A DNA stretch of 30,995 nt from Cyanophyceae cyanobacterium (GTDB lineage: Bacteria > Cyanobacteriota > Cyanobacteriia > Cyanobacteriales > JBHJGN01). A program made the position numbers. The stretch spans positions 1 through 30,995 of the forward strand of contig JBHJGN010000081.1 of NCBI GenBank assembly GCA_050331735.1, written 5' to 3'. This document shows positions 24,401 to 27,400 of this stretch, in pieces. Numbering within the stretch: position 1 is the stretch's first letter; each line of letters starts with the position of its first letter.

Positions 24401-27400
24401 CACCGTGTTTCGGTTGGGAATGGCCGGCACAATTCCCGGCGCTCGTCAGCTCGTTTCCCACGGGCACATTACCGTCAACGGTCGCGTTGTCAACATTGCC
24501 AGCTACCAGTGCCGCCCCGGAGACATCATCGCTGTCAGGGATCGGGACAAATCGCGGCAGCTAGTGCAGCGCAACATGGAGTACCCTGGTTTAGCCAATC
24601 TGCCTAGCCACTTGGAATTTGACAAAAACGCCCTCACCGGAAAAGTTAATGGTGTCATCGATAGAGAATGGGTGGCTCTGCAAATCAACGAACTGTTGGT
24701 GATTGAGTACTATTCTCGGAAAGTATAAATATTGTTCCTCCAGGACGGGGAACGGGGAAAGGGAAAACTGTCGTGTTCGGGACGGGGAAAGAATACAGGC
24801 TCAAGGAATAAGCTGTATACTTCCCTTTACCCCTTACCCTTTACCCCGCGCCCTTGGCGCTTATCCTCCTATCTGGGACATGGTGCGGCTATAAATCCCG
24901 GTGTCGGTGCCGGAATCTCGCTGTTTGAAGTTGATTTCTGGTTTAATTTCCAAAATTTGTCGGACTTGCTCTCGAAGCACTGACGAACTGACACCGCTGC
25001 GAAGCGCTGTTTTGAGGTCAATTTGTCCCGTCTCATTCAGCAAACAGGGGCGTAGCCAACCATCTGCTGAAAGACGCATGCGGTTGCAGCGATCACAAAA
25101 ACATTCCGACATCTGACTAATAAAGCCCAAGGTTCCCTGCGCCCCCGGAATTTGGAACACGTCAGCGGGTCCATTGCCTCTCACCTGAGACTCAATTAAT
25201 CCCCACTTATCTCTAATTTTTTGCCGCAGTTCTTCAGAAGGAATCCAGGCGCGATCGCCAAATAGCTCTGCGTTACCGATGGGCATAAACTCAATAAAGC
25301 GGACGTGCCAGCGCCGATCGACCGTCAAAGCGGCTAAATCCAAAACTTCTCGGTCATTCACTCCCGGAATTACCACTACATTGAGCTTTAGCGGATTGAA
25401 CCCAACCCGATAAGCCGCTTGAATCCCTGCCCAGGTTTGAGTCCAGCGGCTGCGACCGCGATTGCCAATAATGCGATCAAACGTCTCAGGATCTAAAGAA
25501 TCTAGGCTAATGTTGAGTCGCCGCAAGCCAGCCTCATACAAATCCTGCGCCATTTTCTCTAGCAGAAAAGCGTTGGTCGTCATCGCCAAATCTTGAGTTT
25601 CCGGCAGCGCGGCAATTTCTCGCACCAAATCAACTACGCCGGGACGCAGCAGCGGTTCGCCTCCGGTCAGACGAAACTTCCTAAACCCGACAGGCATGAA
25701 TACTTCTTTAAGCAGCGTCAGCAGTTCAGAGGCGGTCAGTAATTCTTGCCGCAGCACAGTGTCTAGTTCTGTTCCTTCCGGCATACAGTACTGACAGCGG
25801 AAGTTACAGCGGTCGATTAAACTAATACGAAGATAATCTACTCGATTCATGCTGTTGATGGTATCTGCGGACACTCTTATAGGATACAAAAATTGCCAAG
25901 AAGTATTGGCTACCGTTGAATGATGAAAGATTGGAATTTGACTCTCTCAACTGAACGCCTGATTCTTCGTCCTCAACAACCCAGTGACTATGAAGCTTGG
26001 TACGCAGGCTTTGCGGGTCGATTACCTAGTCAACACAGATACGATGCCGGGTTAGTTGATTTAACCGAATGCGATCGCCAATGGTTCTCCGACTTATGCC
26101 AGCGCCACCAAAAGCGGGCACTGCTAGATCAAGATTACATCTTTGGAGTATTTTTACGAGAGACGCATCAACATTTAGGCAACATCGATCTTTCTACCAT
26201 CCGCCGAGAAGAAAATCAGTGGGCCAATTTGGGGTACAGCATTCACAACCAGTATCAGCGTCAAGGGATTGGTAAAGAAGCGATTCGCGCAGCTTTGGTG
26301 GCTGGGTTTGAGGAGTTAAATTATCATCGCATTGAAGCAGCGATTAATCTAGATAACAAACCGTCAATCGCGCTAGCTAAGAGTGTAGGAATGGAGAAAG
26401 AATGTATGCGACGGGGGTTTTACTACGAAAATGAACAGTGGGTAGATCATCTGATTTATGTAGCATTGCCCTCAAACTTGGGACTTGCTGAAAAACCGCC
26501 AGTGACAACCCATGATGGGATAAAGAGCCATTAACCACTAACCATCAACACTGTACTGTAGTGACGAGAGAATCTCTATTCCATGTCAGCAATCGCATCT
26601 CTAAAAGAGAGCACCTCTTGGAGCCATTCTTGACAAAGAAAAGTCTGGAATCAAAGCTTACTTTGATTCCAGACTGCTTTAGTTTTGTTGTGTTCAGCTT
26701 TACTACTTTAGCCAACTGATCGGCCAAAATAGCTAACTATCGACGCTCGTAGTAGGCTCTTTCGGCTTGCAGAGCGCGGACTAGATTTTCATCTCCTTTG
26801 GCTCTGGCTACCTCTAAGCGATACTCCAGGCTTTTTAGCAAGTTGGCACGATGAGCTGCTCGAACTTGCTCAAGGCGTTGATACGATTGAGTCATGATTC
26901 TTTCCTCAGCTAATCTGTTGGGCTTGCTTTAGTTGTCTAAGCCGACTTCCGCTGCTGCTCGCTGCAACATCGTTTGGCTGCGGTTTTGCTGCCTCTGACG
27001 ACGTTGGCTCATTAAGAAACGAGCTTGGGCAGAAACAGATCGAGAATTAGTTGATTGAGTGTTTGAGTGATTAAGCATTTCGCCTCTTCCTTGTTTGTGT
27101 AGTGGTCGGAGGCGCGTTCCTTCGGGATAATGTCCCTACTTCCGTCTCTATAAGAGAGATGAACGATTTATCCTTTACATCTAACATACTAGCCTTCCTA
27201 TGAGCGCTCGTCACTAGGGAAAACCGTACTGACGCGCCCCCATCGGCTCAAAGATAGAATCAGCCGGTGTTATTGATTCTCTAAACAAAGGTCAATATTA
27301 GCGGCGGTTAGTTTGCCTAAAATTTAAGGTATCTGCATAAACACTCAGAAAGGTAGGGACATGGAGTTGAAAGAAAAATATGTACGCTGGCTGGAAGACT

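Follow-up and report, generated by a model that had tools for sequence, protein, structure and literature searches.

A glutamine riboswitch heads a short IF7-type gene and a pirA paralogue in a recurring cyanobacterial arrangement

We find that a glutamine riboswitch, a 49-codon open reading frame (ORF) related to the glutamine synthetase (GS) inactivating factor IF7, and a pirA gene follow one another on the minus strand of a 30,995-nucleotide stretch of cyanobacterial DNA (contig JBHJGN010000081.1, hereafter the window), and that this order recurs in other genomes. The reading that we favor, and hold to be fairly probable, is a conserved two-gene module for nitrogen excess, in which the riboswitch would act as a translational switch on the short ORF, here called mini-IF7, while PirA would be made from the same mRNA. 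In published descriptions, cyanobacterial glutamine riboswitches control GS inactivating factors of the IF17/DUF4278 kind, and PirA is monocistronic and under the control of NtcA and NsiR4.

Results

The unit shares a gap of 193 nt with the divergent ppsA gene, and all of its elements lie on the minus strand. Its first transcribed feature would be a type 1 glutamine riboswitch aptamer (27111..27167), which matches the RF01739 covariance model over its full length, positions 1-53 of 53, with 61.8 bits (gathering score 35) and an E-value of 1.5e-11. The end of the aptamer is followed after 32 nt by the ATG of mini-IF7 (26929..27078, stop codon included), and the stretch AAGGAAGAGG stops 4 nt ahead of this ATG. 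Next comes an intercistronic spacer of 33 nt between the mini-IF7 stop and the pirA start (26896..26928), which holds pirA's own Shine-Dalgarno (SD) sequence GAGGAAAG (26907-26900), and then the pirA paralogue itself (26737..26895, stop included), which encodes 52 amino acids. The unit is closed by an intrinsic-terminator-like hairpin 3′ of pirA (26634..26675; 15 bp stem, 4-nt loop, then TTTTCTTTG) that faces a convergent GNAT gene. On the minus strand of the window, no terminator-like site was found between mini-IF7 and pirA, the sole one being that after pirA. A 60-aa ORF with a TTG start (26545-26727, minus strand) was judged to be spurious, because it shares bases with the terminator hairpin and matched no family. 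The aptamer with its score, the ORF (given there as missed by the gene caller) with its distances of 4, 32 and 33 nt, and the identity of the downstream gene (g04649) as pirA had all been reported in an earlier survey of this genome, and we obtained the same coordinates and values.

The last four bases of the aptamer, together with the next two, read CGCCTC (27109..27114), and the SD region of mini-IF7, AAGGAAGAGGCG (27081..27092), contains GAGGCG at 27086-27081. In the minimum free energy fold, CGCCUC and GAGGCG form a 6-bp helix. The tail AACGC[G/T]CCTC is present in 15/15 loci with this arrangement and GGAACGCGCCTC in 17/17 further ones, and GAGGCG was found in all 32 leaders of such loci, as compared to 15 of 3020 leaders of long ORFs from the same genome. 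A sister riboswitch in this genome carries CACCTC with GAGGTG, which amounts to a compensatory change. No terminator was found in the interval between aptamer and ORF, such that the expression platform is one without a terminator. Since the tail is complementary to the SD of the ORF, the riboswitch is predicted to be translational and SD-sequestering, and to gate the first cistron only. Without glutamine, the 3′ tail of the aptamer would pair with the SD of mini-IF7 and block initiation, whereas upon glutamine binding the tail would be drawn into the folded aptamer and the SD would be freed, which is the model that Klaehn et al. (2018; PMC6212724) proposed for gifB.

Upstream of the aptamer, a putative NtcA-type box, GTACGGTTTTCCCT (27216..27229), shares with the GTA-N8-TAC consensus (taken from PMC8092223, PMC6316151 and established knowledge) the GTA half and the spacer, and has CCT instead of TAC, so that it is only half kept; at the equivalent position, the relatives L027 and L029 carry GTACGGTTTTCTAC, which is a perfect NtcA consensus. 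A GT-N10-AC site is absent from our locus. By inspection of the sequence, a putative -10 region (TAGTAT) overlaps a weak GTA-N8-GTA box at 27176..27191. The promoter of the unit is probably influenced by NtcA, and the transcription start probably precedes the aptamer by about 10-17 nt. From a promoter in the 193-nt gap, a single transcript would comprise the aptamer, the IF7-type protein, the PirA paralogue and the terminator. A scan of positions 26400-27450 for the sigma-70 consensus returned zero promoter-like sites, the riboswitch promoter included, which leaves room for an internal promoter.

The product of mini-IF7 matches the NCBIfam profile NF052599 (GS_inact_IF7A) with an E-value of 3.4e-8 and 33.6 bits, below the cut-off of 70 bits. 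The match spans profile positions 2-36 of 66 and leaves the C-terminal third unmatched. Score and E-value agree with those given before, as does the caveat that the ORF lacks the C-terminal 30 residues of the model, about 29 by our alignment. All 15 mini-IF7 homologues match the same profile at E-values up to 0.01 (best 2.5e-10), the bit score given above being that of the window ORF. With the gifA gene of the same genome (C1:56485-56679), mini-IF7 shares 51% identity over 35 residues (E 4e-10). The arginines R20, R33 and R40, invariant in 15/15 homologues, align with R8, R21 and R28 of this GifA, such that the arginine spacings of 13 and 7 are common to both, as are the motifs S/T-M-L-x-R-A and E-V-G-L. 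In contrast to GifA, mini-IF7 has about 13 extra, variable residues at its N-terminus and ends directly after the EVGL motif (EVGLDN); furthermore, it is led by a riboswitch, whereas gifA of Synechocystis is under the control of NtcA and the sRNA NsiR4 (PMC7760959). A Pfam search with mini-IF7 gave no match, nor did a profile of the mini-IF7 alignment against solved structures at E-values up to 1, and a search for related loci with the single ORF yielded only four canonical gifA loci, all of them without a riboswitch.

Among four close relatives, the differences in mini-IF7 are distributed over codon positions 1, 2 and 3 as 29, 5 and 88, and 78 synonymous codon changes stand against 25 non-synonymous ones, a signal that vanishes in shifted frames. 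This pattern indicates that mini-IF7 is under purifying selection. In public data, mini-IF7 falls into 156 protein clusters, of which all with a listed name are called "hypothetical", and gene callers have annotated its homologues elsewhere as "hypothetical protein". The third-position substitutions, these clusters and the 28 distinct loci with the riboswitch/mini-IF7/pirA architecture (see below) argue that mini-IF7 is a real gene, which by homology corresponds to the N-terminal core of IF7. The survey's finding that the product is of the IF7 type is thus borne out by the conserved core, the three arginines and the purifying selection.

The pirA gene of the unit scores 70.2 bits against NF050139 (cut-off 50; profile positions 4-48 of 48). 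The gene is present twice in this genome, with the canonical copy at C37:35447-35590. In a phylogenetic tree, riboswitch-linked and stand-alone pirA sequences (15 versus 21 rows) are split on one branch with a support of 93/93, which marks the linked pirA as a separate paralogue lineage, both of our trees being unrooted and built on about 51-53 alignment columns. In its full-length match above the equivalog cut-off, its size and its motif, the linked copy resembles PirA (Ssr0692) of Synechocystis (Bolay et al. 2021; PMC8092223), and we infer that it binds PII. Unlike the monocistronic Synechocystis gene, it follows a riboswitch-led gene as the second cistron.

Across 151 genomes of the order (about 3-10 Mb each), we obtained 152 matches to RF01739, 150 of them listed, and at least 15 are followed after 200-420 nt by a pirA match on the same strand, a lower bound because the pirA count rests on the 150 of 268 matches listed. 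This linkage is beyond chance. The arrangement thus occurs in at least 15 of the 151 sampled genomes and in seven GTDB families. Among the best 80 pirA loci of a wider contig search, 17 have it, and in 17/17 the aptamer scores 55-63 bits, which brings the architecture to 28 distinct loci in all. The survey had noted an aptamer at 3 of 29 pirA loci; the arrangement that it saw is real, but its frequency was understated. The 26 loci without an aptamer belong to the canonical paralogue, a lineage other than that of the linked copies. The idea that the sole pirA of two families (f2 and f17) is riboswitch-linked was rejected, because none of 19 further short-aptamer loci had pirA downstream (20 were fetched, and L073 did not match the aptamer pattern).

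Discussion

Does the riboswitch reach pirA? Given two genes on the same strand with a short gap, no internal terminator, a terminal one, and an order that is conserved elsewhere, we strongly infer that mini-IF7 and pirA are co-transcribed. The spacer between them measures 13-46 nt in 20 of the 28 distinct loci and 100-230 nt in the other eight. In L030 and eight further loci it is 13 nt, and an SD follows directly after the stop codon; every short-spacer locus has a good SD of its own for pirA. From this SD, PirA would be translated off the common mRNA, and it would then associate with PII and hold back NAGK and arginine synthesis. The survey had placed one aptamer to switch on both genes. The anatomy behind this claim holds, in that the ORF and pirA are one conserved unit, but the SD-sequestering helix acts on the first cistron only, and pirA has its own SD. 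With no terminator in the platform either, the switch could influence pirA only by an indirect route, through translational coupling or stabilization of the translated mRNA.

A stronger version, which we regard as possible but doubtful, is that the single aptamer turns on both proteins because translation of mini-IF7 is needed for PirA, be it through ribosome coupling or through protection from RNase E, such that glutamine would gate GS inhibition and PII/NAGK together. The very short spacers in many loci would suit such coupling, and the pair is strictly co-inherited with its own pirA lineage. Among the 28 positive and 19 other short-aptamer loci there is no riboswitch-led IF7-like ORF that lacks both DUF4278 and a pirA gene behind it. 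Furthermore, DUF4278-PirA fusion proteins are encoded directly behind RF01739 in four genomes, which shows that PirA modules do get placed under glutamine aptamers by selection. However, the good SD of pirA in all short-spacer loci, the spacers of 33 nt in the window and 100-230 nt elsewhere, and the terminator-free platform speak against a strict dependence. The unpaired probabilities predicted for both SD regions on the entire dicistronic RNA follow no pattern (0.14-0.68 for pirA); they show neither a consistent occlusion of the pirA SD nor a sign of coupling, and are uninformative on coupling itself.

The favored module would join a GS inactivator to PirA, and here the function of the 49-aa product has to be weighed. 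Three conserved arginines were reported to be essential for the binding of IF7 to GS (PMC6316151), and since mini-IF7 retains these and the GS-binding core, it would most likely inactivate GS, the cognate enzyme being encoded at C8:4431-5849. We consider it unlikely that it acts on something else, such as PII, PirA or a paralogue that resembles GS, or that it is chiefly a translated leader. Such a role would fit its score below the IF7A cut-off, its missing C-terminus and its constant pairing with PirA, as well as the fact that GS inhibitors are already encoded in this genome by a canonical gifA (114 bits) and by a gifB under riboswitch control (88 bits), next to which a third one looks redundant, and that the genome has three further GS-like genes. 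Against this stand the invariance of the three arginines and the purifying selection on the protein sequence; moreover, homologues of IF17 and IF7 that end right after E-[VI]-G-L are common (L068, L074, L081, L042, L065-L067), which implies that the C-terminal part is often dispensed with.

That mini-IF7 and pirA are mere neighbors within a shared nitrogen regulon, with pirA read from a separate promoter within or behind the ORF, is quite improbable: pirA of Synechocystis does have its own, NtcA-repressed promoter (PMC8092223), the long spacers are roomy enough for one, and that of L037 carries a terminator-like hairpin, but spacers of 13-46 nt are too small for a terminator and a promoter together, those of L031 and L036 have no terminator-like site, the window region showed no promoter-like site (in a scan that missed the riboswitch promoter too), and gene order and orientation are kept across seven families.

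The closest known system is the leader of gifB, encoding IF17, in Synechocystis sp. PCC 6803 (PMC6212724), which likewise has RF01739 in the 5′ UTR of a GS inactivating factor gene and a proposed translational ON switch of the anti-SD/SD type. A canonical riboswitch of this gifB type is also present in our genome (C9:41851-41924). The mini-IF7 unit differs in that the encoded protein is an IF7 core without the N-terminal DUF4278 domain, and in that a second gene, pirA, follows. Having no Pfam match, mini-IF7 would be invisible to the Pfam-based screen described in PMC6212724, whose Table S1 has no entry other than "DUF4278" for what follows the three aptamers of Cyanothece ATCC 51142. To the known picture, this locus and its 27 distinct relatives add a still unnamed family of proteins (about 45-56 aa) that consist of the IF7 core and lie behind the same type of riboswitch, a PirA lineage of its own that is physically linked to this family, and fusions of DUF4278 and PirA placed immediately after a glutamine aptamer. 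In combination, these suggest an extension of RNA-based glutamine sensing to the PII/NAGK/arginine branch of nitrogen control.

The fusions lend independent support, at the level of gene arrangement, to the notion that glutamine aptamers control PirA-type proteins. Proteins with an N-terminal extension and a C-terminal PirA module are considered possible misannotations of unknown function in PMC8092223; here, the extension is DUF4278 in 15/15 cases, a layout that matches the architecture of IF17. A literature search found no paper with both "PirA" and "DUF4278". The regions upstream of DUF4278-PirA genes in one family (f14) look like decayed aptamers by eye, but were rejected as riboswitches in the absence of an Rfam match at E-values up to 1.

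Taken further, and only tentatively, the data could reflect a second, undescribed branch of the glutamine riboswitch regulon with PII and arginine synthesis as its targets. In this view, an old PirA lineage would be expressed only together with riboswitch-gated mini-IF7, whose translation licenses PirA, and elsewhere PirA would be fused to DUF4278 behind an aptamer of its own. If this is true, glutamine would be a direct, RNA-sensed signal that simultaneously shuts down GS and releases NAGK from activation by PII, and DUF4278 would be an N-terminal domain of a portable kind, joined to an IF7 module in some proteins and to a PirA module in others. The recurrence of the mini-IF7/pirA pair in many cyanobacteria may in any case link glutamine sensing to arginine control. 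Annotated homologues of mini-IF7 are also found in Cyanobacterium stanieri PCC 7202 and Rippkaea orientalis PCC 8801, and the arrangement itself is carried by the cultured strains Crocosphaera watsonii WH 8501, Chlorogloeopsis fritschii PCC 6912 and Gloeocapsopsis crepidinum LEGE 06123, which makes the idea directly testable.

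The riboswitch-led unit

On the minus strand of the window, the glutamine riboswitch (RF01739; 27111-27167) is matched by cmscan over the full model at 61.8 bits, the gathering score being 35. An ORF of 49 codons, here called mini-IF7 (27078-26929, minus strand), starts 32 nt downstream of the aptamer, and an SD-containing stretch, AAGGAAGAGG, stops 4 nt short of its ATG. A further 33 nt past its stop codon begins pirA (26895-26737, minus strand; NCBIfam NF050139, 70.2 bits, cut-off 50). The survey's finding had been that one glutamine aptamer is placed to switch on this gifA-like ORF together with pirA; all three elements were recovered in the sequence, and the arrangement is real. 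It is divergent from ppsA (27361-29745, plus strand), and a GNAT acetyltransferase gene (25920-26534, plus strand) converges on it. The sole terminator-like site found on the minus strand at the unit is a 15-bp hairpin after pirA (26675-26634), followed by TTTTCTTTG, and the stretch from the ORF to pirA showed none. Ahead of the terminator hairpin, a further stem (about 14 bp; 26722-26737 onward, minus strand) lies directly behind the pirA stop codon and might affect RNA stability.

Mini-IF7 as a relative of IF7

The mini-IF7 ORF matches NF052599 (IF7A) alone, over profile positions 2-36 of 66 (E 3.4e-8, 33.6 bits), which reproduces the earlier match; by the curated 70-bit cut-off it stands outside the IF7A equivalog, and a Pfam search of its product gave no match. 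ORFs of 45-56 aa lie between aptamer and pirA in all 14 foreign loci, and NF052599 matches all 15 products with E values of 0.01 or lower, the best being 2.5e-10. Invariant in their alignment are M1, R20, L22, R27, N32, R33, M37, L38 and R40 (window numbering). Against the canonical gifA (the IF7 gene) of the same genome (contig C1, 56485-56679; 114 bits), the ORF product shows 51% identity over 35 residues (E 4e-10), and its R20, R33 and R40 fall opposite R8, R21 and R28 of the gifA product, which would be the essential arginines of IF7. The available text of PMC6316151 describes three conserved arginines in the IF7-GS interaction, each of them essential.

Among four close relatives, codon positions 1, 2 and 3 differ 29, 5 and 88 times (78 synonymous and 25 non-synonymous changes), and this pattern is lost when the frame is shifted. 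Since such a substitution pattern is that of coding sequence, mini-IF7 is, judged by its sequence, a real coding gene and a relative of IF7. A profile search of public proteins returned 156 clusters with E of 0.001 or lower; the 120 that were listed measure for the most part 44-62 aa, carry no Pfam domain and, where named, are called "hypothetical" or uncharacterized.

Compared with IF7, the product is without the last ~29 residues. The same truncation, just past E-[VI]-G-L, is found in homologues of the related factor IF17 behind other riboswitches (L068, L074, L081, L042 (62 aa)) and in stand-alone IF7 homologues (L065-L067), so that the C-terminal loss is not strong evidence against a role as GS inhibitor. 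By homology, the mini-IF7 product would be expected to inhibit GS.

Probable translational gating and a possible reach to pirA

In the MFE fold of aptamer and leader, P1-P3 are kept and a further hairpin forms, where CGCCUC at the 3' tail of the aptamer (27114-27109) pairs with GAGGCG in the SD (27086-27081). The tail AACGC[G/T]CCTC and the SD GAGGCG occur together in 15 of 15 loci, as do GGAACGCGCCTC and GAGGCG in all 17 aptamer-bearing loci of a second sample, drawn from genome_contigs. By comparison, 15 of 3020 long ORFs in the own genome, taken as a proxy for real leaders, have GAGGCG in the 22 nt that precede the first ATG. This genome holds four other glutamine riboswitches; two have the same CGCCTC/GAGGCG pair and one has CACCTC with GAGGTG, a compensatory change. 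Its leader of gifB (the IF17 gene) reads CGCCTT with GAGGCG, where pairing is possible with a wobble pair.

The hairpin as a transcription terminator is ruled out by the absence of a T-run behind it. The window leader fits the translational ON model put forward for gifB by Klaehn et al. 2018 (PMC6212724). Because the aptamer tail pairs with the mini-IF7 SD, the switch would act on initiation at the first cistron, and translational gating of mini-IF7 is well supported by comparison.

For pirA the situation is different, since it has its own SD, GAGGAAAG at 26907-26900, as it does in every short-spacer locus. The notion of one aptamer for both genes therefore holds for initiation at the first cistron (CGCCUC:GAGGCG) and is not supported for direct action on pirA, which the aptamer could control by an indirect route only, via coupling or mRNA stabilisation. 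A base-pairing-probability calculation on this point gave no consistent outcome.

Distribution of the unit

RF01739 and PirA were searched in 151 genomes of the GTDB order to which the window belongs, its own genome among them. At least 15 of these, from seven families (f1, f9, f14, f18, f26, f27 and f36), have a pirA match with an aptamer 200-420 nt upstream on the same strand, a lower bound because 150 of 268 PirA matches were listed. In the second sample, a pattern scan of genome_contigs with the alignment of linked PirA (the copy behind riboswitch and mini-IF7), 17 of the best 80 of 343 confirmed pirA loci have the aptamer upstream, each time RF01739 at 55-63 bits and each time with an IF7-like ORF. 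Carriers include Crocosphaera watsonii WH 8501, Cyanothece sp. BG0011, Gloeocapsopsis crepidinum LEGE 06123, Chlorogloeopsis fritschii PCC 6912 and Pleurocapsales cyanobacterium LEGE 06147. The arrangement is thus wider than first reported. The two collections overlap, as 4 of the 17 ORF products also occur in the first set, and together they hold 28 distinct products.

The spacer from ORF stop to pirA start is short in 20 of the 28 (13-46 nt) and long in the other eight (100-230 nt). A scan of three long-spacer loci found a terminator-like hairpin in the spacer of L037 and none in those of L031 and L036. Comparison across loci supports a dicistronic unit well. The L035 spacer (538-767) reaches 230 nt because four to five tandem units of ~24 nt (CAAGGTTTGCGTCCAGTAACAAAC) stretch it. 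The carrier Chlorogloeopsis fritschii PCC 6912 (L136) is heterocyst-forming; a published 60-genome survey of 2018 had the heterocystous clade without a glnA aptamer.

Two likely lineages of pirA

The own genome has a second, canonical pirA (contig C37, 35447-35590; 69.4 bits), with a GTA-N8-TAC box ahead of it. A tree of PirA proteins, 15 of them linked and 21 stand-alone (aptamer-less), has one branch, supported at 93/93, that divides the two labels. They need two changes in a second tree of 81 rows, from which one linked row (L162) was left out, the start-codon rule having given a 32-aa fragment. The odd row is L160, where an aptamer could not have been seen because the contig ends 67 nt upstream of pirA. 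Linked pirA is likely to be one old paralogue lineage, which falls short of proof since both trees are unrooted and have about 51-53 columns; such a split would account for the absence of the aptamer from most pirA loci.

Upstream boxes

The window has GTACGGTTTTCCCT upstream of the aptamer (27229-27216, minus strand). In L027 and L029 the corresponding position is taken by GTACGGTTTTCTAC, a perfect NtcA consensus, and other relatives keep parts of it; no GT-N10-AC site was found in the window. In five of the six f36 loci, GTCAAATT[T/G]GATAC stands there instead, followed at a distance of 8 nt by a TATATT box. The centre of the former, near -27.5 when counted from the assumed -10 box, is close to the -28.5 given for a repressive site in the available text of PMC6316151. 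NtcA control of the unit is plausible by analogy, and weakly so for this genome.

DUF4278-PirA fusions

Four f18 genomes carry a second RF01739 aptamer directly before an ORF of 142-144 aa (L038:383-808, L039:383-814, L040:383-811 and L041:30-455, all minus strand), whose residues 1-57 are DUF4278 (73-81 bits) and residues about 91-137 PirA (57-66 bits, above cut-off). IF17 is built in the same way, except that the IF7 module stands where these proteins have PirA. Both riboswitches of these genomes hence lead to PirA-bearing units, and the fusions lend independent support to aptamer control of PirA. Eleven further fusions (L120-L130) come from families f2, f14, f15, f20, f27 and f37, with no Rfam-detectable aptamer; both domains are present in all 15 fusion proteins (123-144 aa). 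About 110 nt upstream of the f14 fusion genes of L120, L122, L123 and L124, an aptamer-like sequence can be seen by eye (GTATTCA ... AGAAGTAGAG ... AAGGAACGTGCCTT, then GGAGGCG); it gives no Rfam match at E up to 1 and might represent an aptamer that has decayed or diverged. Bolay et al. 2021, in the available part of the paper (PMC8092223), considered PirA versions with an extended N-terminus possibly misannotated and their function elusive; the extension left unidentified there is DUF4278 here.

The own genome has a third PirA-like module (contig C44, 53959-54618, minus strand; 40-43 bits, below cut-off), at the C-terminal end of an ORF of 155 aa whose start lies 10 nt past a 60-aa DUF4278 ORF. 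Unlike in the fusions, the two are neighbouring, separate ORFs, preceded by an NtcA-type box, GTTACAATTGATAC, and by no riboswitch.

Relation to the known system and other targets

The available parts of PMC8092223, PMC9196836, PMC7760959 and PMC13362535 describe neither a pirA operon nor a riboswitch-led pirA. Titles listed from 2019 onward hold nothing on a riboswitch-pirA unit, and a full-text search for PirA together with DUF4278 returned no paper; other papers could still describe the unit. Table S1 of Klaehn et al. (PMC6212724) names nothing but "DUF4278" downstream of the three glnA motifs that it gives for Cyanothece ATCC 51142. To this known glutamine-riboswitch system, the mini-IF7-pirA unit adds a dicistronic form in which mini-IF7 would be gated translationally.

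Other RF01739 aptamers (L075 and L085 of f25, L043 of f18) stand before unnamed ORFs, whose products are a conserved protein of 59 aa (MIKQ...) and one of 110 aa, with no likeness to IF7, IF17 or PirA by eye. In the own genome, the glutamine riboswitch on contig C15 (49772-49846, minus strand) leads to a small, conserved hydrophobic protein of 72-78 aa, not an inactivating factor and apparently a membrane protein; the pairing recurs in L072 and L076 (families f17 and f25).
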